DNA from: Gemmatimonadales bacterium
GTDB lineage: Bacteria > Gemmatimonadota > Gemmatimonadetes > Gemmatimonadales > GWC2-71-9
Direction of reading: 5' to 3'
Assembly: GCA_035310725.1 (NCBI GenBank)
Contig: DATGDT010000257.1
Location: 1,216 to 65,215, forward strand
DNA: 64,000 bases
Shown here: positions 1,883 through 61,699 of the stretch, in pieces
How the letters are laid out: every line of letters begins with the position of its first letter
Numbering within the stretch: the first letter of the stretch is position 1
Made by a program: the position numbers and the translations under genes
The notes under the pieces: generated by a model
What the model was told of the DNA's origin: nothing
The model's database searches: none
Seen by the model: the letters and a program-made list of their open reading frames with translations, nothing else

Positions 1883-2821
1883 TCAGTCTCGCACGCGGCT
1901 CCGCTGCGCCAGCTCGGTCGCGAGCTCGAGGGCGGCCCGCATGCTCCCTGGATCCGCAACGCCCTTTCCCGCGATGTCGAACGCCGTGCCGTGATCGGGC
2001 GATGTCCGCGGAAACGGCAATCCCAGGGTGATGTTCACGCCCTTGCCGAACCCGGCCACCTTGACGGCCGTCATGCCGACGTCGTGGTAGGGAGCGAGCA
2101 CCGCGTCGAACATCCCGCGCAGCGCCTTCACGAACACCGTGTCGGCCGGCAGCGGGCCCGCGGCCCCGAGCGCCTGCGCCGCGGGTCGGAGGATGCGATC
2201 GTCCTCGTCGCCGAACAGGCCGCCTTCGCCGGCATGGGGGTTCAGCGCGCACAGCGCGAGCCGAGGCGTGGCCAGCCCCCACCACCGCTCCAGCGCCGCC
2301 TCCGTCAGCCGTCCGACCGCGACGATCCCCTCGGTGGTGAGACGCTGCGGCACCTCACGCAGCGGGATGTGCGTGGTCACCAGGACGACACGCAGCGGAC
2401 CTGCGGCCAGCATCATCGCCGTCGGAATATCGCCGGCCAGGCGTGACAGCAGCTCCGTGACGCCGGGAAACGGGTAGCCGGCGAGGTGGAGGGCGCGTTT
2501 CTCGACCGGCCCGGTGACCACCGCGTCCACCTCTCCGGCCCGGGCCAGCCACACGGCGCGCTCGATCGACCGGACAGCGAGTTGCCCTGCCGCCCGCGCA
2601 CGCTCCTCACCCGCTCGGCCCTCGTCCCCCGTCCCCCGTCCCCAGTTTCCCACCCCGATCCGGCTGCGCGCCGCGATGCCGTTCAGCAGATCATCCGGTC
2701 CCACGAGCACGACATCCGCGCCCAGCGGACCGCCGGCGAGCGCACGTGTCACGACCTCCGGCCCGATCCCTCGCGGATCGCCGAGCGTCACGGCGAGTCG
2801 CGGGCGGCGCGCGGCGGCCAC
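1883..2821 (-). CDS. pdxA: 4-hydroxythreonine-4-phosphate dehydrogenase
   Basis: C-terminal 313 aa of the artefactually long ORF 1883-4393: LAVTLGDPRGIGPEV...TGPVEKRAL...LNPHAGEGGLFG...TSPDHGTAFDIAGKG. GTG start at 2821 lies 2 nt after the surA stop. Confidence 0.9.
   Translation of the reverse strand: MAAARRPRLAVTLGDPRGIGPEVVTRALAGGPLGADVVLVGPDDLLNGIAARSRIGVGNWGRGTGDEGRAGEERARAAGQLAVRSIERAVWLARAGEVDAVVTGPVEKRALHLAGYPFPGVTELLSRLAGDIPTAMMLAAGPLRVVLVTTHIPLREVPQRLTTEGIVAVGRLTEAALERWWGLATPRLALCALNPHAGEGGLFGDEDDRILRPAAQALGAAGPLPADTVFVKALRGMFDAVLAPYHDVGMTAVKVAGFGKGVNITLGLPFPRTSPDHGTAFDIAGKGVADPGSMRAALELATELAQRSRVRD
2619..2643 (-). repeat. Tandem heptamer block (GGGGACG)x3+AGGG inside pdxA, encoding GRGTGDEGRA
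   Basis: Plus strand reads ccct cgtcccc cgtcccc cgtcccc. By hand alignment it is 26/28 identical to the heptamer block at 25060-25087 (envC 5' end), in the same reading frame. Confidence 0.9.
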
Positions 2822-14671: not shown

Positions 14672-15098
14672 GTGACACTCGACCTCTACGCCCGGCACAA
14701 GTCCGAGTACATCGCCCCCCGGATCGCCGGCCTTCTTGACGATCGGGGCCGCCAGGTACCTGACTGTGGCGGGACGCGGTGACCCCAATGGACCCGCGTT
14801 CGGCGCCGCAGTCGGGGCGCTGTACGGCATCGCGTATACGATCAAGATGGCCAAGAAGGCCGGCGGCCGCACCCTGGAGGCCCGAGTACGGTTGGAAACG
14901 CAGCGCGAGGGCCGGTGCGTGCAGATGCTGCACCGCGGTCCCTACCGGGCGGAGCACGCCACCATCACCGCGATGGTGGCGTTCGCCCGCGGCCGGGGAC
15001 TGCGCCCACGGGGCCGGCACCACGAGATCTACCTCTCCGACCCGCGGCGCGTCGCTCCAGCGAAACTGCGCACCATTCTCCGGCAACCCGTGCGTTAG
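14672..15098 (+). pseudogene. Decayed GyrI-like (SOUL/small-molecule-binding) gene with a frameshift in a C6 run plus an apparent internal deletion
   Basis: Frame A runs GTG 14672 to TGA 14780-14782 (VTLDLYARHKSEYIAPR...). Frame B is ORF 14736-15098 (..TIGAARYLTVAGRGDPNGPAFGAAVGALYGIAYTIKMAKKAGG...HHEIYLSDPRRVAPAKLRTILRQPV). Removing one C from cccccc (14715-14720) joins them. Confidence 0.6.
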
Positions 15099-16036
15099 GC
15101 GGCTTCGATCCCGAGTACGCCGGCGTTCGTCTTCGAGCGCTTGAGCATGGCCAGCAGGTTCTCCATGGCCTGCGTGGGAGGCAGTCCCACCAGACGGCGG
15201 CGCAGCTCCTGCCGCGCGGTCACCACCGCCGGTGGGGCGAGCAGTTCCTCCCGCCGGGTCCCACTCGCGGCGATATCCACGGCAGGGTAGATGCGCCGGT
15301 CCGCCATCTCGCGGGTGAGGCGCAGTTCGGCGTTGCCCGTCCCCTTGAACTCCTCGAAGATCACGTCGTCCATGCGGCTCTCGGTTTCGACGAGCGCGGT
15401 CGCGATGACGGTGAGCGATCCCCCGTCGGGCACGGCGCGGGCCGACCCGAACAGGGCCTTGGGTTTGGCCATCGCGTTCGCATCGAGCCCACCCGACATC
15501 GTTCGCCCGCTCGAGCGGCCCGCCGTGTTGTGCGAGCGCGCCAGGCGAGTGAGTGAGTCGAGGACGATCACGACGTCGCGTCCGAGCTCGACCTGGCGCC
15601 GAGCGTGCTCGAACACCATGTCGGCCACCGCCACATGCCGCTCGTGCGGCAGATCGAAGCTGGATGCGATGACCTCACCGCGGCCCCAATCGATCATCTC
15701 GCTCACTTCTTCGGGCCGCTCATCGACCAGCAGGATGAGCAGCTCCACCTGCGGATGATTCAGGGCGACGCCTTCCGCCACCGCCTGCAGCACCGTCGTC
15801 TTCCCCGCCTTCGGCGGCGACACGATGAGGGCACGCTGGCCGAACCCGAACGGGCAGACCAGATCGATGACGCGCTGAATGTCTCCGGTCCGCTGGCTCT
15901 GCTGGCTCACCGTCTCCAGACGCAGCGGCCGTGATGGATGGACCGCGCCGAGCGCGGAGAACTCGGGACGCTCACCCATCCGCTCCGGAGCGAGGCCGTT
16001 CACGCTGACGACCCGCCCACCCTCGAGCGTCACCAC
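15095..16036 (-). CDS. rho: Transcription termination factor Rho, ATPase core only (N-terminal domain missing or unclear start)
   Basis: ORF 313 aa with Walker A SPPKAGKTTVLQ, LLVDERPEEV, VLDSLTRLARS and SLTVIATALVETESRMDDVIFEEFKGTGNAEL. The frame stays open upstream to TAG at 16193-16195 but contains no ATG/GTG/TTG there. Confidence 0.85.
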   Translation of the reverse strand: MVTLEGGRVVSVNGLAPERMGERPEFSALGAVHPSRPLRLETVSQQSQRTGDIQRVIDLVCPFGFGQRALIVSPPKAGKTTVLQAVAEGVALNHPQVELLILLVDERPEEVSEMIDWGRGEVIASSFDLPHERHVAVADMVFEHARRQVELGRDVVIVLDSLTRLARSHNTAGRSSGRTMSGGLDANAMAKPKALFGSARAVPDGGSLTVIATALVETESRMDDVIFEEFKGTGNAELRLTREMADRRIYPAVDIAASGTRREELLAPPAVVTARQELRRRLVGLPPTQAMENLLAMLKRSKTNAGVLGIEAA

Positions 16037-16184
16037 GTCGCCGCGGCGCAGGCCCGGGAGACGAACCCCCGGGTCGCCGCGGGCGGGCAGGTAGCTGTTG
16101 GCCGCGAACCGCAGGGCGCCGCCCTTGGGAGCGGGATCGAACCAGCCGGTGATTGGTGGCAGGGGGTGACCTCGCTGGAAATAT

Positions 16185-16266
16185 GCTATCGGCTATCAGC
16201 TATCGGCAGGGTGCGTAGCCCTGGGCCACCCGTCAGCCGAGAGGCCGATAGCCGATAGCCGATAGC
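16185..16266. repeat. Heptamer-array palindrome: (GCTATCG)(GCTATCA)(GCTATCG)GC, 36-nt spacer, GC(CGATAGC)x3
   Basis: Left arm is 16185-16207 and right arm is 16244-16266. The arms are 22/23 complementary, with one A/C mismatch at 16198/16253. Confidence 0.95.
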
Positions 16267-16282
16267 TTATCTTCCCTCGCAC

Positions 16283-24202: not shown

Positions 24203-25056
24203 CCCTGACGGTGCGCGAGGCCCTGCTCGCCTTTCGGCGCGCGCCGCTCCTGTCGGCGCTCTCGGTCACCACGATCGCGTTCTCGCTGTTCGTGCTCGGG
24301 CTGTTCGGGCTCGTCGCCGTGAACCTCCGCCAGGCGCTGCGCGGGGTGGCGGAGCGGGTGGAGATCGTCGCGTACGTCCTTCCCGGCACGCAGATCGAGA
24401 CGGTGACGCTGGCCGAGCAGGACATCGAGGCGTTTCCCGAAGTGCTGTCTGCCGACTACGTGCCCGAGGATAGCGCGCTGGCGCGCGCCCGCCGCGAGCT
24501 GGTGGAATTCCGCGACCTGTTGCGCGAGATGGAGCGCAATCCACTGCCCTCTTCCATCGAGGTCAAGCTCAAACCGGGCTACCAGGACGCGGCCCACGTC
24601 AATGCCGTCGCCGAGCGGCTGCGGAGCTTCAGCTTCGTGGACGACGTGCGCTACGGTCGCGATTGGGTGGAGAAGCTGGATCGGCTGCGCGGGCTCGCCG
24701 CCGCCGTCGGCGTGGTGGTCGGCGCGGCCTTCGCCGTCGTCGCCGTGATCATCATCGGCACCACGATCCGGATGGCCGTGCTGCAGCGCAGCCGGGAGAT
24801 CGCGATCATGCGGCTCGTGGGCGCGACCGACGGGTTCATTCGCCGCCCGTTCCTGCTCCAGGGCGCCCTCAAGGGGCTGCTCGGGGGGCTGGTCGCCGTC
24901 GGCTTGTCCTACGTCGCCTACGTGTTCATCAACCGGTTCTTGATCGCTTCTTCCTTCTTCACGGCGCTACAGGCGCTGGCCGTCGTGGTGTTCGGGACGG
25001 TCATCGGGCTGATGGGGAGTCTCCTCAGCGTCGGGCGACATTTGAGACGAGTATGA
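24199..25056 (+). CDS. ftsX: Cell-division permease-like protein FtsX
   Basis: ORF 285 aa. GTGA overlap with ftsE, four TM segments and an FtsX extracellular-domain pattern. Confidence 0.9.
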   Translation: MTLTVREALLAFRRAPLLSALSVTTIAFSLFVLGLFGLVAVNLRQALRGVAERVEIVAYVLPGTQIETVTLAEQDIEAFPEVLSADYVPEDSALARARRELVEFRDLLREMERNPLPSSIEVKLKPGYQDAAHVNAVAERLRSFSFVDDVRYGRDWVEKLDRLRGLAAAVGVVVGAAFAVVAVIIIGTTIRMAVLQRSREIAIMRLVGATDGFIRRPFLLQGALKGLLGGLVAVGLSYVAYVFINRFLIASSFFTALQALAVVVFGTVIGLMGSLLSVGRHLRRV

Positions 25057-26279
25057 ACCGGGGACGGGGGACGAGGGACGAGGGACGGGCCTGGATCATC
25101 GCGGCCATCGCGATAGTCCTCGTCACGCTTCCCTCGTCCCCCATCCCTCTCTTCGCCCAGCGCCCGACCCTCGAGCAGCAGATGCGCGACAATCAGCAGC
25201 GCCTGGAGGGCATCCGCCGAGAGCGGACCCAGGCGCAGCAGGATCTGGAGCGGCTGCGCGCCCAGGTCCACAGCCTCGCCGACGAGCTGACCAACCTCGA
25301 GCATCAAAAAGAGACCACGAACCGCATCGTGAACGAGCTGGACCGGCAGATCCTCCAGCTGGGCGACGCGATCGACCGCATCACGGTGGACCTGGTGCTG
25401 GCCCAGGACGCGCTGGACGAGAAGCGCGCTGTGGCGGAGCGGCGGCTCGTCGACATCTACAAGCGCGGCCCGTTGTACGCCTACCAGGTGCTGTTCGCGG
25501 CCGAGAGTTTCGGCGACCTCCTGTCGCGGTACAAGTACCTCTACCTGATCAGCCGGCAGGACCGCCAGCTCGCCAACGAGATGAACCGGCTGCGGGATCG
25601 CATCGCACGGGAGCGGCGCGGTCTGGTGGAAGCGCGCGACGCGCTGGAGCGGCGCCGCACCGAGCGGTCCGAAGAGCTGCAGCATTTCGTCGATCTCGCC
25701 TCGCAGCGGCAACGCCGGCTGCGCGAGACCCGCCGTGACGTGGAGCGGGTCCAGGAGCGGCTCACCGCCACCGACGCCGAGGAGCGGCGGGTCGCCAACG
25801 CCATCGCCACGCTCGAGCGGGCGCGCCGCGAGGCCGAGGCCCGGGGCGCCGTGCCGACGACCGGCGCGATCACGAGCGGGAGTCTGGGCTCGCTCGACTG
25901 GCCGGTGACCGGCCGCGTGGTCTACGACTTTGGCCCCGCCGCGGGGCCCGACAACACGCGCATCACCTGGCATGGCATCGGTATCGCCGCGGACGAGGGC
26001 ACGGCCGTGAAGGCGGTCGCGCCCGGGACGGTCGCCCTGGTGGGGCCCCTCGGCACTTACCTCACGACGGTGATCGTGGATCACGGCGGCGGCTTCTACA
26101 CGATCTACGCCTCGCTCAACGACGCGGCGGTCTCCAAGGGCGACCGCGTGGTCCGCGGACAGCTGCTCGGTCACGTCGGCGGCGGCACGACCGAGCAGGG
26201 CCCGCACCTGCACTTCGAGATCCGGGGCCCGGGGCAGATTGCGCTCGATCCGCTGAATTGGCTGAAACCGAAACCTTAA
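25053..26279 (+). CDS. EnvC-like murein hydrolase activator (coiled coil + M23/LytM domain)
   Basis: Real part of ORF 24663-26279. ATG 25053 forms an ATGA overlap with ftsX. It has a signal-anchor WIIAAIAIVLVTL, a long coiled coil, and a C-terminal M23 region (GIGIAADEGTAVKAVAPGTV...VIVDHGGGFYTIYASL...GPHLHFEIR). Confidence 0.85.
   Translation: MNRGRGTRDEGRAWIIAAIAIVLVTLPSSPIPLFAQRPTLEQQMRDNQQRLEGIRRERTQAQQDLERLRAQVHSLADELTNLEHQKETTNRIVNELDRQILQLGDAIDRITVDLVLAQDALDEKRAVAERRLVDIYKRGPLYAYQVLFAAESFGDLLSRYKYLYLISRQDRQLANEMNRLRDRIARERRGLVEARDALERRRTERSEELQHFVDLASQRQRRLRETRRDVERVQERLTATDAEERRVANAIATLERARREAEARGAVPTTGAITSGSLGSLDWPVTGRVVYDFGPAAGPDNTRITWHGIGIAADEGTAVKAVAPGTVALVGPLGTYLTTVIVDHGGGFYTIYASLNDAAVSKGDRVVRGQLLGHVGGGTTEQGPHLHFEIRGPGQIALDPLNWLKPKP
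25060..25144. repeat. Heptamer array (GGGGACG)x2(AGGGACG)x2 with a degenerate inverted partner, inside the envC 5' end
   Basis: Direct units span 25060-25087. acgggggacgaggg (25064-25077) is 13/14 complementary to ccctcgtcccccat (25131-25144). An inner palindrome atcgcg/cgcgat lies at 25098-25114. Confidence 0.85.
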
Positions 26280-27224
26280 ATGCGTCGAGCGAAGGCGTCG
26301 AGCGAAGGCGTCGAGCAGCGGCGTCGAGCGAGAACGTATTCGCTCGACGGTTCTGCTCGACGATTTCGCTCGACGTTTGTGCTCGACGCCTTTCTGTTGT
26401 CGTGCCTCGCCTGTGCCGCCCCGACGAACCGCCTGGAAGTGGCCGGCACCGTCGAGATCCGTGACATCGGCATCGCTCCACTCGCCGCCGGCCGGGTCGT
26501 ACGCCTGCTGAAGGACGAAGGCGATTCGGTACGACGCGGGGACACCATCGCGGTGCTCGAGCAGCCCGGCCTCCCGGCGCTCATCGGCCAGCGGCAGGCC
26601 CAGGCCCAGGCGGCACAGCGGCGCACGGCGGAGGTCCGTGCGGCGGTCGCCGACAGCACGCGGGCGGCGAACGATCTCGCTCGCGCGGGCTCCCTGCGCG
26701 AGCAGGGCATCATGTCGGCGCAACAGTACGACGCGCTGGTGACCGCCGCCGCGGCGGCCACGGCCCGGCTCCAGGCGGTGCACGCGGCCGCGAGCGAGTC
26801 GCGCGCCGCCGCCGCGGGACTCGCGGCCACCGAGGCGATCCGCGACGAGCTCGTGCTGCTCGCTCCGGCGGACGGCGTCATCCTCACGCGCTATCTCGAG
26901 GCGGGCGAGGCCGCGAACGTCGGCGTGCCGGTCGTGTCGCTCGGCGTCGTGGCACAACCCTGGATCCGCGCGTACGTCGGTGAGCCGTACATCGCGCGGG
27001 TGCACCTTGGCCAGACGGTGACGATTCGCGCCGACGGTCTGGCGACGCCCGTCAGCGGACGCATCGTCGACATCGCGACGCGCGCCGAGTTCACGCCGCG
27101 CGCCGCCCTCACCGACCGCGAGCGCGCCGATCTCGTCTTCGCCATCAAGGTGGGATTCGACGATCCGGCCGGGCGTCTCAAGGCCGGCCTGCCCGTGACG
27201 CTCGAGCTGCCGCTCACGCCGTGA
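26280..27224 (+). CDS. HlyD/YbhG-family membrane-fusion (periplasmic adaptor) protein of the ABC-2 exporter
   Basis: ORF 314 aa. Resembles E. coli YbhG (biotinyl-lipoyl-like GRVVRLLKDEGDSVRRGDTIAVL; C-terminal RAEFTPRAALTDRERADLVFAIKV). Start is uncertain: ATG 26280 or in-frame GTG 26379 (LDAFLLSCLACAAP lipobox-like). Confidence 0.8.
   Translation: MRRAKASSEGVEQRRRARTYSLDGSARRFRSTFVLDAFLLSCLACAAPTNRLEVAGTVEIRDIGIAPLAAGRVVRLLKDEGDSVRRGDTIAVLEQPGLPALIGQRQAQAQAAQRRTAEVRAAVADSTRAANDLARAGSLREQGIMSAQQYDALVTAAAAATARLQAVHAAASESRAAAAGLAATEAIRDELVLLAPADGVILTRYLEAGEAANVGVPVVSLGVVAQPWIRAYVGEPYIARVHLGQTVTIRADGLATPVSGRIVDIATRAEFTPRAALTDRERADLVFAIKVGFDDPAGRLKAGLPVTLELPLTP
26282..26390. repeat. 109-nt symmetric array: four 13-nt-period direct units (core CGTCGAGC) followed by four inverted units (core GCTCGACG)
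   Basis: Direct cores start at 26283, 26296, 26309 and 26322. Inverted cores start at 26342, 26355, 26368 and 26381. All four core pairs share one symmetry axis (position sums 52671). The first two units are identical (gcgtcgagcgaag). Confidence 0.95.
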
Positions 27225-27955
27225 GCGACATCGCAGTCGACATCCAGCAGTTGACGCGCCGATTCGGCGCCCTCACCGCCGTCTCCGGACTGACGCTCCA
27301 GATCCCCCGCGGGCAGGTCTTCGGGCTGCTCGGGCCCAACGGCTCGGGCAAGACCACGACGATCCGTATGCTGTGCGGCCTGCTCGATCCCTCCGAAGGC
27401 ACCGCCTCGGTCGCGGGGATCGACATCCGCACGGCGCCGGAGCGCGTGAAGATGCAGATCGGCTACATGTCCCAGCGGTTCGGGTTGTACGAGGATCTCA
27501 CCGTCGCCGAGAACCTCGAATTCTACGGCGGGATCTACGGCCTCCGCGGCCGGGCGCGCGCCGAGCGCACGGCGGAGGTGGTGCGCTTTCTGGGCATCGG
27601 CGGACGACTCGAGCAGCTGGCGGGGCAGCTGTCGGGCGGCTGGAAGCAGCGCCTGGCATTGGGCTGCGCCCTGCTGCACCAGCCTCCCGTGTTGTTCCTC
27701 GACGAGCCGACGGCCGGTGTGGACCCGGCCGCGCGACGCAACTTCTGGCAGGCCATCCATGATCTCGCGCACGGGGGCACCACCGTCCTGGTGACGACGC
27801 ACTACATGGACGAGGCCGAACGCTGTGACCGGCTGGCGATGATGAGCCTGGGGCACCTGATCGCCCTGGGCACGCCGGCAGAGGTCGCGGCGCAGGTCGG
27901 CGGCCGGACCCTCGAAGACGCCTTCATCATCCTCCAGGAGCGCGACGAGCGATGA
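27221..27955 (+). CDS. ABC transporter ATP-binding protein (ABC-2/YbhF-like)
   Basis: ORF 244 aa: GPNGSGKTT, LSGGWKQRLALGCAL, LFLDEPTAGVD. GTGA overlap with the hlyD-family gene. Confidence 0.92.
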   Translation: MSDIAVDIQQLTRRFGALTAVSGLTLQIPRGQVFGLLGPNGSGKTTTIRMLCGLLDPSEGTASVAGIDIRTAPERVKMQIGYMSQRFGLYEDLTVAENLEFYGGIYGLRGRARAERTAEVVRFLGIGGRLEQLAGQLSGGWKQRLALGCALLHQPPVLFLDEPTAGVDPAARRNFWQAIHDLAHGGTTVLVTTHYMDEAERCDRLAMMSLGHLIALGTPAEVAAQVGGRTLEDAFIILQERDER

Positions 27956-29064
27956 TGTCCCGCTTCTGGCCGATGTTCCGCAAGGAATTCATCCAGATGA
28001 AGCGCGACCGGCTCACGCTGGGCATCATGATCGGCATCCCGGTGGTGCAGCTGCTGATGTTCGGGTACGCCATCCAGACCGACGTGCGGCATATCCCGAC
28101 GGTGGTCCTGGACCGCTCCCGCACGCCGGAGAGCCGCGATCTGATCGCGGCGTTCGAGAACACCGGGAGCTTCCGCATCGTGGACCACGTGGACGGCCAG
28201 CCGGCGCTCGACGCTTCGATCGAACGGGGGCGGGCGCAGGCCGGCATCATCGTCCCCCCGGAGTACGCCCGCGATCTCGGCCGCGGCCGCACCGCGACGG
28301 TGCAGGTCGTGATCGACGCCTCCGACCCCCTGTCGTCCCAGTCCGCGCTCGCGGCGGCGGCCGGCGTCGGCCAGGTGCGCAATCTGGCCGCGCTCGTCGC
28401 CGGCGCCGGTCGCTTGAGTGTCCCCATCGACGTGCGCGTGCGGCCGCGCTACAACCCCGGGCTGCGCAGCCCGAACTACATCGTGCCCGGCCTGGTGGGG
28501 GTGATCCTCACGCTCACCCTCGTGCTCATCACGGCGATGGCGATCGTCCGGGAACGCGAGCGCGGTACCCTGGAACAGCTCATCGTCACGCCGATCACCA
28601 AGACCGAGCTGATGCTGGGGAAGATCGCCCCCTATATCGGAGTGGGGATCGTGCAGATGACCGCGGTCCTCACGCTCGGCCGCTTCGTGTTCGATGTGCC
28701 GCTCTCGGGCAGCCTGCTGCTGCTCTACGGCGTGTCGCTGATCTTCGTGATCGCCAGTCTCTCCTTCGGCCTGTTCATCTCCACCATGGTCAGGAACCAG
28801 CAGCAGGCGATGCAGGTCAGCTTTTTCTTCGTGATGCCGAACATCCTGCTCTCCGGCTTCATGTTTCCACGCGCGGCGATGCCGGCGTTATTCCAGTGGT
28901 TCAGCCTCCTGCTGCCGCTCACGCACTATCTCCAGGTGCTGCGCGGCATTCTGCTCAAGGGCGTGGGCCTGAACGCGATCTGGCCGCAGGTGGTGATCCT
29001 GTGCGGCTTCGCCGTAGCCCTGATCTCGCTGGCCGTGCGGAGATTCCACAAGACGCTGGACTGA
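27952..29064 (+). CDS. ABC-2 type transporter permease (YbhR/YbhS-like)
   Basis: ORF 370 aa. Has an N-terminal cytoplasmic segment, one TM helix, a large periplasmic loop and five C-terminal TM helices. ATGA overlap with the ATPase gene. Confidence 0.9.
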   Translation: MMSRFWPMFRKEFIQMKRDRLTLGIMIGIPVVQLLMFGYAIQTDVRHIPTVVLDRSRTPESRDLIAAFENTGSFRIVDHVDGQPALDASIERGRAQAGIIVPPEYARDLGRGRTATVQVVIDASDPLSSQSALAAAAGVGQVRNLAALVAGAGRLSVPIDVRVRPRYNPGLRSPNYIVPGLVGVILTLTLVLITAMAIVRERERGTLEQLIVTPITKTELMLGKIAPYIGVGIVQMTAVLTLGRFVFDVPLSGSLLLLYGVSLIFVIASLSFGLFISTMVRNQQQAMQVSFFFVMPNILLSGFMFPRAAMPALFQWFSLLLPLTHYLQVLRGILLKGVGLNAIWPQVVILCGFAVALISLAVRRFHKTLD

Positions 29065-29071
29065 AGAGGCA

Positions 29072-29156
29072 GGGAGTGGGGAGTGGGGAGTGGGGAGTGG
29101 TACTCGGCGGAGCGAAGACGGAGTTCCGCCACCGTCGGGTACCACTCCCCACTCCC
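29072..29156. repeat. Heptamer-array palindrome: (GGGAGTG)x4 GTAC, 35-nt spacer, GTAC C(ACTCCCC)(ACTCCC)
   Basis: Direct units span 29072-29099. An 18-bp perfect stem pairs gggagtggggagtggtac (29086-29103) with gtaccactccccactccc (29139-29156). An inner ggcgga/tccgcc pairing sits in the spacer. Confidence 0.95.
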
Positions 29157-29175
29157 GGTCCCCACGCGCAAGTTT

Positions 29176-29844
29176 ATGGCGATGCCCCCTGCCCCGGAAA
29201 CCCGCTCCGCGCGCCGCCGCATGGTGCGCCGGCAACTCGCGGCGCGCGGCGTTCGCGACGCCCGCGTGCTGGCGACGATGGCCCGCATTCCGCGCGAGTG
29301 GTTCCTGGCCGACGCCCTCGACCCGCAGGCCTATCGCGACGGCCCGTTGCCCATCGGCAACGGACAGACGATCTCGCAGCCCTACATCGTGGCGGTGATG
29401 ACTGCCGCGCTCGGCGCCCAGCGACGGCACCGCGTGCTCGAGATCGGCACGGGATCGGGATACCAGACTGCGGTGCTCGCGCGTCTGGTGGGACACGTCT
29501 ACACGGTCGAGCGCTTGCCGGACCTGCTGGTCGAAGCGGAGGAACGGCTCCGCCGGCTCGGAATCGGCAACGTGACCACGCGACTCGGCGATGGAGCCGC
29601 GGGGTGGCCCGAGGCGGCACCGTTCGACGGCATTCTCGTCACCGCCGCGATCCCGCGTGTGCCTCCACCATTGCTCGAGCAGGTGACACCAGGCGGGCGC
29701 ATCGTGGCGCCGATCGGTGACCAGGCGGAGCAGGAGCTGGTCATTCTGGAGCGACGGGCAGCCGGGTGGGCCGAGCGCAGCGCGGGCGGAGTCCGTTTCG
29801 TGCCGCTGATCTCGCGGCTCGCGTTTCCCCGGGAGTCGCCCTGA
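29176..29844 (+). CDS. pcm: Protein-L-isoaspartate O-methyltransferase
   Basis: Real part of ORF 29083-29844, starting at ATG 29176. Motifs: GQTISQPYIVAVM, VLEIGTGSGYQTAVLA, FDGILVTAA. Confidence 0.9.
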   Translation: MAMPPAPETRSARRRMVRRQLAARGVRDARVLATMARIPREWFLADALDPQAYRDGPLPIGNGQTISQPYIVAVMTAALGAQRRHRVLEIGTGSGYQTAVLARLVGHVYTVERLPDLLVEAEERLRRLGIGNVTTRLGDGAAGWPEAAPFDGILVTAAIPRVPPPLLEQVTPGGRIVAPIGDQAEQELVILERRAAGWAERSAGGVRFVPLISRLAFPRESP

Positions 29845-30716
29845 TTCTCCACGACGACCTGCTGGGCGCGCACGTGTCGAGTCTGGGCGGCGTGGCGCAC
29901 GCGCCCGAACGCGGACGAACCGTCGGCGCGAACGCGATCCAGGTGTTCACCAAGACGCCCAATCAGTGGCGCGAACCGGCGATCGACGCGGCCCAGGCCG
30001 ACGGCTTCCGGTCCGCATTGACGCGGTCGAGAATCCGCGCCGTGGTGGCCCACGACAGCTACCTGATCAACCTGGCCTCGCCCGACGCGGCGTTGCGGGC
30101 GCGCAGTGAAGCGAGCTTCACCCGCGAGCTGGAGCGCTGCCGGATGCTCGGCATCCCCTGGGTGGTGAGTCACCCCGGGAACTTCATGGACGAACGCGCC
30201 TCCGGGCTCGAACGCAACGCGCAGAGCTATGCCGCCTGCCTGACCCGCGTGGACGGGCCGGGGGTGCTGATCGAGGGGACCGCGGGGGCCGGGACGGCAT
30301 TGGGCGCGACCTTCGAAGAGCTGGCGGCCCTGCGCGAGGCGCTGCCGCCCGCGCTGCGGCCGCGCGTGGGATTCTGCCTCGACACCGCCCATCTGCACGC
30401 TGCCGGGTATAACGTCGCCGCGGATATCGCGGCGGTGTGGGAGGAGTTCGACCGGGTCGTAGGAATGGCGCACCTGCGGTGCCTGCACCTCAACGATTCG
30501 CGGGTGGCGCGGGGATCGCGCATCGACCGGCACGCCTGGATCGGCGAGGGTGCGATCGGCCCCGAGGCATTCCGGCACATCATGCGGGACCAGAAACTCG
30601 AGGGAGTGATTAAGATTATCGAAACGCCGAAGGCGGACGACCCGGTGCGTCACGACCGGCGCATGTTGCGGCGGCTGCGCGCGTACGCGCGTGGCACCCC
30701 CTCCACGGCGTGTTGA
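29766..30716 (+). CDS. nfo: Endonuclease IV (AP endonuclease, xylose-isomerase-like TIM barrel)
   Basis: ORF 316 aa: LGAHVSS..GG, AHDSYLINLASP, SHPGN, CLDTAHLHAAGY, HLNDS. The only canonical start before the conserved GAHVS strand is GTG 29766, which overlaps pcm by 79 nt. A CTG/ATT start near 29841 would fit homologs better, so the 5' end is uncertain. Confidence 0.85.
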   Translation: MGRAQRGRSPFRAADLAARVSPGVALILHDDLLGAHVSSLGGVAHAPERGRTVGANAIQVFTKTPNQWREPAIDAAQADGFRSALTRSRIRAVVAHDSYLINLASPDAALRARSEASFTRELERCRMLGIPWVVSHPGNFMDERASGLERNAQSYAACLTRVDGPGVLIEGTAGAGTALGATFEELAALREALPPALRPRVGFCLDTAHLHAAGYNVAADIAAVWEEFDRVVGMAHLRCLHLNDSRVARGSRIDRHAWIGEGAIGPEAFRHIMRDQKLEGVIKIIETPKADDPVRHDRRMLRRLRAYARGTPSTAC

Positions 30717-49560: not shown

Positions 49561-50444
49561 CGCGCCGCCAGGCCGACCTCGCGCTGATCTCCGCCTGCCT
49601 GCTCTGGGGAGTCAGCTTCGTCGTCGTGAAGCTCGCGCTCGAGGACGCCACGCCGCTGGCCTTCGCCGCGGTGCGCTTCGCGATCGGCGCCCTGCTCCTC
49701 GCGCCGTTCGCCCGGCTGCGCCAGCCCTTCACCGGTGCCGAGGTGGGAGCCGGCGCCCTGCTCGCGGGTCTGCTTGGAATCGGGTTTCTCGCCCAGACCG
49801 CCGGCCTGGTGTGGACGACGCCCTCCCGCTCCGCGTTCATCGTCGCCATCTCGTCGGTGCTCGCACCGGCCATGGCGGCCCTGGCCCTGCGCGAGCGCCC
49901 CGCCTGGCCGCTGGTCACGGCGGTGCTCCTCGCCGCATTGGGCACCTACTGGCTGACCGATCCCGAGGCGGGCGGGCTGAATCGTGGGGACATGCTCACG
50001 CTCGTCACGGCCGTGCTGTTCGGGGCCCAGATCGTGGCGACCACCGCCCTGTCCCGCCGCTTCGACCCGTTTCGCCTCGTGTGGATGCAGATCGCCGGAA
50101 CCGCGGTCCTGGGCGCCGTCGGGGCTGCCCTGCTCGAGCGGCCCGTGATCCACTGGACGACCACGTTCGTCTGGGCGCTCGCCTACACCACTGTCGGCCC
50201 GACCGTGGTCGCGTTGCTGCTGCAGATGGTGTCACAGCGGCACATGTCATCGGCACGGGCGGCGCTGCTCTTCTGCTTCGAGACGCTGTTCGCCGCGGGG
50301 ACGTCGTGGATGGTTTTGGGCGAGCACCTCTCGGCACAACAGTGGTTGGGTGGAGGTCTGATTCTCGGCGGGCTGATGCTGGCAGAACTGAAGGCGTCGT
50401 CGGCTATCGGCTATCAGCCATCGGCAGAGCGCGATTCGGGTTGA
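49557..50444 (+). CDS. EamA/DMT-family transporter
   Basis: Part of ORF 49002-50444. GTG 49557 forms a GTGA overlap with uvrA. It has 10 TM segments and two EamA repeats. The last ~15 codons (SSAIGYQPSAERDSG) and the stop are encoded by the GCTATCG repeat copy. Confidence 0.8.
   Translation: MTRRQADLALISACLLWGVSFVVVKLALEDATPLAFAAVRFAIGALLLAPFARLRQPFTGAEVGAGALLAGLLGIGFLAQTAGLVWTTPSRSAFIVAISSVLAPAMAALALRERPAWPLVTAVLLAALGTYWLTDPEAGGLNRGDMLTLVTAVLFGAQIVATTALSRRFDPFRLVWMQIAGTAVLGAVGAALLERPVIHWTTTFVWALAYTTVGPTVVALLLQMVSQRHMSSARAALLFCFETLFAAGTSWMVLGEHLSAQQWLGGGLILGGLMLAELKASSAIGYQPSAERDSG
50403..50433. repeat. Second copy of the GCTATCG heptamer element (left arm and start of spacer)
   Basis: gctatcg gctatca gccatcg gcagagcgcg versus 16185-16215 gctatcg gctatca gctatcg gcagggtgcg gives 28/31 identity. 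A degenerate right-arm unit, ggcgata, starts at 50461, 35 nt after the left arm (36 nt at locus 1). Confidence 0.85.
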
Positions 50445-50514: not shown

Positions 50515-50587
50515 TCCCGAGTAGCTCAGTTGGTAGAGCAGCCGGCTGTTAACCGGCGGGTCGGGGGTTCGAGTCCCTCCTCGGGAG
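50515..50587 (+). tRNA. tRNA-Asn (anticodon GTT)
   Basis: Hand-folded cloverleaf. Acceptor tcccgag/ctcggga, D arm gctc-agttggta-gagc, anticodon arm gccgg-ctGTTaa-ccggc, T arm ggggg-ttcgagt-ccctc, discriminator g. No encoded CCA. Confidence 0.93.
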
Positions 50588-61656: not shown

Positions 61657-61699
61657 CGCGTTGCCCCATGACCAGAAATTTCGGTCATGGGGCAACGTG
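61657..61699 (-). terminator. Strong hairpin downstream of DUF4382-like paralog 2
   Basis: 14-bp perfect stem gttgccccatgacc (61660-61673) / ggtcatggggcaac (61683-61696) with a 9-nt loop. It extends to about 17 bp with one G-U pair. On the minus strand it is followed by TTGTGTG. Confidence 0.6.

Follow-up and report, generated by a model that had tools for sequence, protein, structure and literature searches.

The 64-kb window analyzed here, the whole stretch from a Gemmatimonadales bacterium (70% G+C over 64 kb), carries four tandem GGGAGTG heptamers and an inverted partner between an ABC-2 type permease gene and pcm, the gene for protein-L-isoaspartate O-methyltransferase. We conclude that this element is a diverged member of a palindromic repeat of ~90 nt that is abundant in soil Gemmatimonadota. 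The array is probably the 5' arm of an old, diverged copy of this dispersed repeat, with any effects of the hairpin being secondary. The most likely view is that this palindromic repeat is selfish or neutral, and that the large hairpin which it puts into the transcript is incidental.

The sequence layout reported in the original prediction for the array and its inverted partner is confirmed. The four GGGAGTG units are perfect, start 7 nt past the permease TGA, and are recovered by Tandem Repeats Finder (TRF) as a period-7 array of 4.1 copies with 100% match. The repeat finder also returns the predicted 18-bp perfect stem, in which units 3-4 and the adjoining GTAC (29086-29103) complement 29139-29156 across a 35-nt spacer. 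This complementarity can be extended to 25 nt at 92%. The features of the locus, by window position, are as follows.

27952 to 29064, + strand: ABC-2 type permease gene, from the list of open reading frames (ORFs) and its ABC2_membrane Pfam domains; its TGA stop (29062-29064) adjoins the element.
29065 to 29071, + strand: left terminus AGAGGCA, the 7 bases between the TGA and the array; the terminal consensus is drawn from 184 element ends.
29072 to 29099, + strand: 5' arm, (GGGAGTG)x4, perfect units with a canonical G-quadruplex (G4) motif; the family norm is 2 units.
29100 to 29103, + strand: left GTAC, the inner boundary of the arm, from the window sequence.
29104 to 29138, + strand: spacer or core of 35 nt (family norm 38 nt), a diverged form of CTGACGGTGCG-N16-CGCACCGTCGR.
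29139 to 29142, + strand: right GTAC, from the window sequence.
29143 to 29156, + strand: 3' arm, (CACTCCC)x2, perfectly complementary to units 3-4 of the 5' arm.
29157 to 29175, + strand: a third unit in degenerate form, with the right terminus (GGTCCCCACGCGCAAGTTT); in the family, CACTCCCCACGC(C/AG)TTT stands at the corresponding place.
29182 to 29844, + strand: pcm (Pfam PCMT, E = 6e-59), with the conserved start ATG 29182.

Together with the permease stop, the left terminus reads TGAAGAGGCA and resembles the family terminus (T)AAAGGCGTG / TGAAGAGGCGTG (TGAAGAGGCGTG in L171). Near-identical termini are found in L136 and L171.

The family was recovered by scanning metagenomes with the pattern GGGAGTGGTAC-N25-55-GTACCACTCCC, which is present at a minimum of 120 loci. 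The figures that follow are drawn from the 130 matches listed. Because GTAC belongs to the search pattern, it is fixed by design in all recovered copies. The spacer is 38 nt long in 96 of the 130 matches and 39 nt in another 23. The consensus is (T)AAAGGCGTG-(GGGAGTG)2-GTAC-[38-nt core]-GTAC-(CACTCCC)2-CACGCCTTT(A), and the oriented 38-nt core reads CTGACGGTGCG-N16-CGCACCGTCGR. Conservation persists beyond the fixed search pattern, where the arms run on as CGTG-GGGAGTG and end in the termini (T)AAAGGCGTG and CACGCCTTT(A). Copies with distinct flanks number 92. On many contigs, 10 kb contains two or three copies, and half copies frequently accompany them.

Copies differ freely in unit number and in the middle of the spacer. 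The arms hold from one to four heptamers; the left arm has 1, 2, 3, or 4 units in 13, 55, 21, and 3 of the 92 distinct copies, respectively. Two units in each arm is the commonest combination, and the 4/2 arrangement of the window occurs in 3/92. No preference for four units is seen in this family. A perfect 12-14-nt palindrome, CCGGTGCGCACCGG, is present in the core of many copies and is missing from the window copy. The core faces either way relative to the upstream gene, without bias (19 forward, 20 reverse). The pairing of the inner stem reflects sequence conservation, with no covariation beyond shuffled controls, a pattern that fits common descent better than selection on RNA structure. 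RNAalifold on 61 oriented copies recovered only the fixed arms, and with covariation no higher than that of the shuffles, a fold selected in evolution is not claimed. A sister subfamily with (GGGGAGC)x3 arms and a GGTAC boundary is seen in L214 (485-590) and L179 (3850-3920). The L214 core is recognized by a hidden Markov model (HMM) of the 38-nt core (E = 0.0026), so the same core also occurs with another arm heptamer.

Reference genomes, one per species, were scanned for (GGGAGTG)x3, and the counts given are among the matches listed (L001-L120). These are mostly Nostocales, and Gemmatimonadota, Acidobacteriota, and others are also represented. The full arrangement (GGGAGTG)n-GTAC-spacer-GTAC-(CACTCCC)n is found in two Gemmatimonadota genomes (L025, L055). 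Of 126 arrays of three or more GGGAGTG units, 22 are paired with an inverted partner no more than 130 nt away. All 22 pairs have the G-rich arm 5' and the C-rich arm 3', so that either strand begins with the G-arm, and no pair had the opposite order. The purine-rich arm also comes first in the GGAACGC, GCGGAGT, GGGGCGT, GCGGATT, GCGGGAT, and GGGAAAC hairpins that were examined.

The window copy shares with the family its arms, both GTACs, and the left terminus. Its spacer matches the family consensus weakly; 69 of 5000 shuffles score as well (p of about 0.014). A reverse-complemented loop is evident at the same junction in a 98% relative (L122), where the spacer is identical to that of the window at 32/35 positions only after reverse-complementing, indicating that the loop has flipped. 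Within the window, the 14-mer GGGAGTGGGGAGTG occurs 5 times at up to 2 mismatches compared with 0.89 expected, a number reached in 0/100 shuffles. Perfect arrays of period 7 number four, and there are none of any period from 8 to 12.

The permease–pcm junction was compared among relatives graded by percent identity. It is identical to the window in the 100% relative. In 98% relatives the junction has three units, one of them mutated (GGGAGCG followed by two GGGAGTG), and a 92% relative has two left units. The 94% relatives L257 and L258 have only TGA-gaggca-GGGAGT-atagtttctcc-ATG between permease and pcm; the element is lost or was never present, and pcm directly follows. A relative with only a single heptamer shows that the element is dispensable. 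Two other genes occupy the position in 91% relatives. An 81% relative (L255, 7113-7215), with no pcm at this place, has another G-rich, heptamer-like hairpin past the permease stop, GGGACGAGGGACCAGGGAAGCGGGAAAGGG ... CCCACTTCCCGCGTCCCCCGTCCCC.

The inner arms (18+18 nt) are identical across three lineages whose four-fold degenerate sites are 85.5%, 55.6%, and 54.9% identical. At the four-fold rate, the probability of 36 unchanged arm positions is ~0.556^36, or less than 1e-9. Such improbable identity means that the arms are constrained, homogenized, or repeatedly re-inserted.

A comparison in which the flanks of every copy were matched to every locus identified occupied and empty sites elsewhere. 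L180 has an empty version of an engB-like GTPase gene (atcGGGAGTGcctttt); the element is present in that gene in L145, L219, and L252. The empty allele reads ...GAC ATC GGG AGT GCC TTT TAC..., and relative to it L145 has a 78-nt in-frame insertion, and the product of the occupied allele reads GS-GEWGVVRDGENRPAAARRQVPLPTPH-AFYF. The junctions show no direct target duplication: the occupied site is atcGGGAGTG[78 nt]gcctttt, with the single heptamer common to the arm. Both informative empty sites (engB and L257) hold one GGGAGT(G) followed by a T-rich flank.

Copies lie in frame in three genes by Pfam: inside the MMR_HSR1 GTPase match, inside the asparaginase II match, and upstream of the Metallophos domain of a metallophosphoesterase. 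All are read in one frame, as a 26-residue insert GEWGVV...VPLPTPH. A strict criterion places 13 of 83 copies within genes; the intergenic copies comprise 29 between same-direction, 10 between convergent, and 5 between divergent genes. The upstream stop typically lies 14-21 nt from the inner heptamer, a few bases from the end of the element. Asparaginase homologues were considered as a third empty site and set aside as not decisive, since they hold a variable loop with possible arm remnants. In P0125, P0127, P0129, and P0133 (A2 columns 201-215), short G-rich loops (LGSGEQGAG, LGSREPGAGSG, LGKGEEGRGK) resembling remnants of the G-rich arm lie at the site of the L147 element, and other homologues have a 7-residue loop. 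As judged from these sequences, repeated insertion and partial deletion may have occurred within this coding loop.

The element would spread, or be rebuilt, at sites that already hold a single GGGAGTG beside a T-rich flank, through microhomology, template switching, or a transposase. The identity of the arms could be maintained by hairpin-templated correction, gene conversion, or repeated insertion. Heptamer number would drift by replication slippage, and here the 5' arm may have grown from two units to four, creating an accidental G4 motif. Transcribed with the ABC-transporter genes, the element is predicted to fold into a hairpin of ~33 bp that begins 7 nt past the stop. By analogy with REP (repetitive extragenic palindromic), ERIC, and Correia elements, this hairpin might protect the 3' end of the upstream mRNA, attract a double-strand RNase, or weaken the coupling to pcm. 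Such transcript effects are regarded as a side effect and not as the element's reason for existing.

Several points weigh against a dispersed repeat as the origin of the window element. The core HMM is not significant on the window spacer, so that the case for membership is made by arms, GTACs, termini, and the weak spacer match. The 14-mer search found a single family copy within the window, so the family may not be active in the source genome. The perfect retention of the arms over ~45% neutral divergence could instead mean that the host selects for the hairpin. Deletion could have produced the empty sites, which would then not be unoccupied targets, and we infer mobility solely from presence/absence differences. 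No transposase, parent insertion sequence (IS), or target-site duplication was found in the loci examined; whole genomes were not searched. The counts of gene context use a crude, author-made gene finder based on GC3 and are approximate.

The rival that survives best is a host-selected element of the transcript, namely a bidirectional terminator, attenuator, or 3'-end stabilizer placed after stops, which here would separate the ABC-transporter transcript from pcm. It is possible but unlikely. The clustering of copies past stop codons, their rarity between divergent genes, and the A-rich left and T-rich right termini (AAAGG...CCTTT), which look like those of a two-way terminator, all speak for it. 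So do the arms at the permease–pcm locus, perfectly kept where four-fold sites are only 55% identical, and the unrelated G-rich heptamer hairpin past the permease stop of the distant relative L255. The predicted hairpin is also very stable: the RNA fold of the element region is -77.2 kcal/mol (z = -8.2) and the DNA fold -41.2 (z = -7.9). In the predicted minimum free energy (MFE) structure, the main stem has 25 contiguous pairs, including G·U, and ~7 outer pairs, with 29158-29164 pairing with 29076-29082. But a stem of ~33 bp with a loop of at least 16 nt is far beyond the norms for terminators, and no canonical terminator-like site was detected in 28000-30500. In the window copy no T-run adjoins the stem, the nearest TTT being 17 nt past the arm. 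L257 and L258 manage without the element, the in-frame copies lie in genes where a terminator would harm, and the inner stem shows no covariation.

A second alternative, a good deal less probable, is that the heptamers and the palindromic core (CGGTGCGCACCG) are putative sites for a DNA- or RNA-binding protein, with the hairpin being secondary. Such a protein might be a nucleoid protein, a cold-shock-type protein that would bind one heptamer each, or a regulator. Core and arms are indeed conserved as sequence and not through compensatory changes, the palindrome CCGGTGCGCACCGG is perfect over 12-14 nt in many copies, and such roles have been suggested for other heptamer repeats. But the copies have no link to any candidate binding protein, and both unit number and spacer middle are free to vary in this family. 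Sites in coding regions and directly past stops are odd for a regulator, and the window copy has lost the core palindrome.

The original prediction emphasized that the same G-tracts could sit either in the duplex stem or in a G4. The canonical G3+N1-7 x4 pattern is present, as one of only 8 such motifs across 64 kb, and the G4Hunter score is 2.24 (maximum 25-nt window, 2.40). A G4 is formally possible, but the hairpin wins at equilibrium. With G-quadruplex energies included, ViennaRNA gives the hairpin as the MFE of the full element (-77.2 kcal/mol). Forcing 29072-29095 to be single-stranded yields -31.9 kcal/mol, and for the isolated arm the predicted G4 has -12.4 kcal/mol. By this model the hairpin is favored over a G4 plus the remainder by ~30 kcal/mol and far outweighs the predicted G4 at equilibrium. 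A G4 appears in the predicted MFE solely for nascent RNA, prior to synthesis of the right arm. The predicted pairing of ggcgga (29106-11) with tccgcc (29124-29) inside the spacer is not used: the two are complementary, but the predicted MFE extends the main stem instead of pairing them.

A hairpin/G4 switch, formed in RNA or in DNA opened by transcription and tuning the permease or pcm, is marginally less probable still than a protein-binding array. In its favor stand the motif and score, the nascent-RNA prediction, and the analogous heptamer repeats that form G4s in vitro, of which those of Xanthomonas prefer four units (PMC4692102). Against it, the 3-unit and 2-unit relatives have fewer than four G3 tracts at the permease–pcm junction and fail the motif, and one relative has no element. 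The commonest arm in the family has two units, with four in just 3/92 copies, and sister elements in the window have arms free of G-tracts (e.g., GCTATCG). Since typical family copies do not have four G-tracts, which are peculiar to this lineage, the G4 potential is best read as a by-product of slippage, and a selected switch at this junction is unlikely. Lastly, a purely local origin, in which a slippage microsatellite acquired an inverted copy by local template switching and is unrelated to anything elsewhere, draws on the general slippage-proneness of heptamer arrays and on the solo arrays of the window (2619-2643 and 50400-50425), but is effectively refuted by the 120 or more loci with the same arms, GTAC boundaries, spacer length, and termini, which independent local events would not be expected to produce.

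The dispersed repeat has relatives among known families. As far as the literature found and Rfam show, it is without earlier description in Gemmatimonadota, while its kind is known. At the gathering threshold, Rfam returned only tRNA across the whole window, and an E-value search around the element gave merely sub-threshold matches to microRNA hairpins. Short tandemly repeated heptamers (STRR) of cyanobacteria were reportedly described by Mazel et al. in 1990. Heptamer repeats have also been reported near Nostoc repair genes. TAACTGA arrays occur in Beggiatoaceae (PMC4679880), and Geobacter metallireducens has 49 copies of GGGACCG x4 elements (PMC2700814). The window array is likewise an intergenic tandem heptamer. 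However, those arrays are not described as parts of a fixed-length palindrome, and only 12 of 104 cyanobacterial (GGGAGTG)n arrays among the matches listed have an inverted partner.

The closest class is that of the GGGAATC repeats of Xanthomonas and the GGGGAYT repeats of Nostoc (Rehm et al. 2015, PMC4692102). These repeats occupy intergenic sites at a mean distance of 28 nt from the upstream ORF, and among them are 70-75 convergent inverted pairs per genome that are capable of forming stem-loops. They form G4s in vitro, and a competition between stem-loop and G4 has already been suggested for them; no function was found. The Xanthomonas repeats prefer four units (PMC4692102). The window (GGGAGTG)x4 resembles this class as a tandem array of G-rich heptamers (at least 2 units, G3+) of variable number, which is intergenic, on the sense strand, and within ~50 nt of the upstream stop. 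Convergent inverted pairs and rarity between divergent genes are also shared. In contrast, the unit here is GGGAGTG, the phylum is another, and the commonest number is two rather than four. The Gemmatimonadota element is also a discrete palindrome of ~90 nt in which non-repeat termini are conserved, GTAC marks the boundaries, and the 38-nt core is fixed, and it is documented here with in-frame genic copies and single-heptamer empty sites.

The family is like REP and REPIN sequences (Bertels & Rainey 2011, PMC3116915; Di Nocera et al. 2013, PMC3733652) in its inverted pairs at fixed spacing, hairpins, high copy number, clusters with partial copies, and location downstream of genes, between same-direction and convergent ORFs. 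Unlike REPINs, its arms, CGTG(GGGAGTG)2GTAC, are not self-complementary and are not small palindromes with a GTAG or CGTC tag. Membership among CGTC-tagged REPs, raised by a core that ends in CCGTC, was rejected: the inner hairpin has a 7-bp stem and a 16-nt loop, compared with 8-9 bp and 4-5 nt. No RAYT (REP-associated tyrosine transposase) gene was found by phmmer with approximate Y1-transposase seeds among 9,424 ORFs in 1.07 Mb of element-bearing contigs, no whole genome being searched. The sole match was an IS200-type TnpA in L199, scoring 37.7 against a RAYT cut-off of 80. A family copy is 2.3 kb away from this partial IS200/IS605-type TnpA (L199 1-444, minus strand; Pfam Y1_Tnp, E = 2.4e-15), the flanks of which carry another repeat, ccccggggcccgctgcccggg.

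Bacterial MITEs (miniature transposable elements with inverted repeats), such as Rickettsia palindromic elements, Correia, and ERIC, are also non-coding palindromes of ~100 nt that differ in presence among strains (PMC10969869). The terminal inverted repeats that define MITEs are present here, as the AAAGGCGTG...CACGCCTTT termini and the arms are inverted. Like the in-frame palindromic insertions of Rickettsia, the family occurs in frame in unrelated genes, with the window copy itself being intergenic. Correia elements undergo loop inversion, seen here as the flipped loop, and RNase III cleavage (PMC10969869). Unlike these elements, the family has microsatellite-like arms, an unrelated sequence, no known parent IS, and no evident target-site duplication at the engB junctions.

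In the gene neighborhood, ftsE, ftsX, an M23 peptidase gene, an HlyD-like gene, an ABC ATPase gene, the ABC-2 permease gene, the element, pcm, and a TIM-barrel gene follow in this order, all on the + strand. The permease is the final gene of the ftsE-ftsX-M23 peptidase-HlyD-like-ABC ATPase-permease run, and in a homology search it is a 100% match to the NCBI entry 'ABC transporter permease [Gemmatimonadales bacterium]'. An exact-sequence look-up gave no entry for this permease. The gene downstream of pcm is of the sugar-phosphate-isomerase type by Pfam and gene order. pcm had been predicted to start 20 nt past the right arm. An ATG is present there (29176), but the conserved start is ATG 29182, 26 nt past the arm, which is the one called in relatives and kept in intergenic alignments.

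The three longest hairpins in the 64 kb (16181-16270, 25061-25147, and 29070-29158) all have tandem-heptamer arms. The other repeat-armed hairpins of the window are as follows.

16181 to 16270: (GCTATCG)x3 arms and their inverted copies, 27 nt and 93% complementary, with a 36-nt spacer.
25061 to 25147: arms of GGGGACG or GGGACGA.
26283 to 26392: four copies of the 13-mer GCGTCGAGCGAAG, an 8-nt gap, and four inverted copies.

The hairpin at 16181-16270 ends 13 nt before the lepA start (16283). Its arms have no G-tracts, and its architecture is that of the element studied here. The gene opposite it (15095-16036, minus strand) has the ATP-synt_ab domain alone. The proposed likeness between its spacer and that of the permease–pcm element, in which it was called the rho-lepA element, is at chance level, with 3110/5000 shuffles scoring as well. 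The link between the two is real solely as a common architecture, that of a heptamer-armed hairpin, and not as a common motif. A core common to two elements of the window, A and B, was also rejected; the core HMM missed both, and the motif similarity was at chance.

The 5' end of the M23-peptidase gene (25053-25147), whose ATGA overlaps the ftsX stop, carries a repeat-armed hairpin. The loci compared were L122 7171-7300, L126 7143-7290, L253 3136-3280, L255 3089-3290, and L257 1395-1500. The arms consist of GGGGACG heptamers in the window, 13-mers of the GCGTCGAG type in 98% and 91% relatives, GGGAAAC in L253, and AAGGCGTAGGGAG in L255; L257 has none. The hairpin is in frame, with the G-rich arm forming a charged N-terminus and the loop and C-rich arm forming a hydrophobic, signal-peptide-like segment. 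The hairpin at 26283-26392 lies directly past the M23 stop, where the HlyD-like lipoprotein is annotated to start. In a 98% relative, there is one 13-mer unit per side, and the HlyD-like gene begins MRQATLLLDAVLLLCAC there. The true HlyD-like start in the window may lie downstream, for example at GTG 26379.

Two solo arrays have no inverted partner. CCCCCGT x3.6 at 2619-2643 is the complement of the GGGGACG unit at 25061, and TCGGCTA x3.7 at 50400-50425 has the unit found at 16185. The latter lies in the last codons of an ORF ending at 50444, ~90 nt before a tRNA gene (50515-50587). A 17-bp inverted repeat at 61657-61699 with one mismatch and a 9-nt AT-rich loop (CGCGTTGCCCCATGACC-agaaatttc-GGTCATGGGGCAACGTG) is not repeat-armed and lies just ahead of an ORF starting at 61687.

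More tentatively, and with considerable doubt, heptamer-armed hairpins could constitute a distinct, cross-phylum class of palindromic DNA, with the G-rich arm 5' on both strands, many different heptamers, a short core bounded by GTAC-type sequences, and spread without a transposase. Such a class would propagate by hairpin- or microhomology-templated insertion at single heptamers, with no dedicated transposase. If true, this would account for the absence of target duplications, the loop flips, the long-kept identity of the arms, and the replacement of one hairpin by another at the same junction. Arms open in all frames would permit in-frame insertion and signal-peptide-like N-termini. As at 25053 and 26280, charged residues would come from the G-rich arm, and residues that are hydrophobic or proline-rich from the C-rich arm.

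Knowledge of bacterial heptamer repeats goes back to 1990, and that of their frequent pairing in inverted orientation to 2015. For the locus studied here, the tempting account of a G4 switch ahead of pcm is dropped as unsupported. Copies of such repeats can mislead gene callers; starts are called inside elements at 25053, at 26280, and in relatives. The rule for annotation is that a G-rich heptamer array that has a C-rich inverted partner is, in Gemmatimonadota, a copy of a repeat family. With a fixed-length core, more than 100 copies, occupied and empty sites, flipped loops, and in-frame copies in enzymes, this family offers unusually clean material for studying the origin and function of such repeats.

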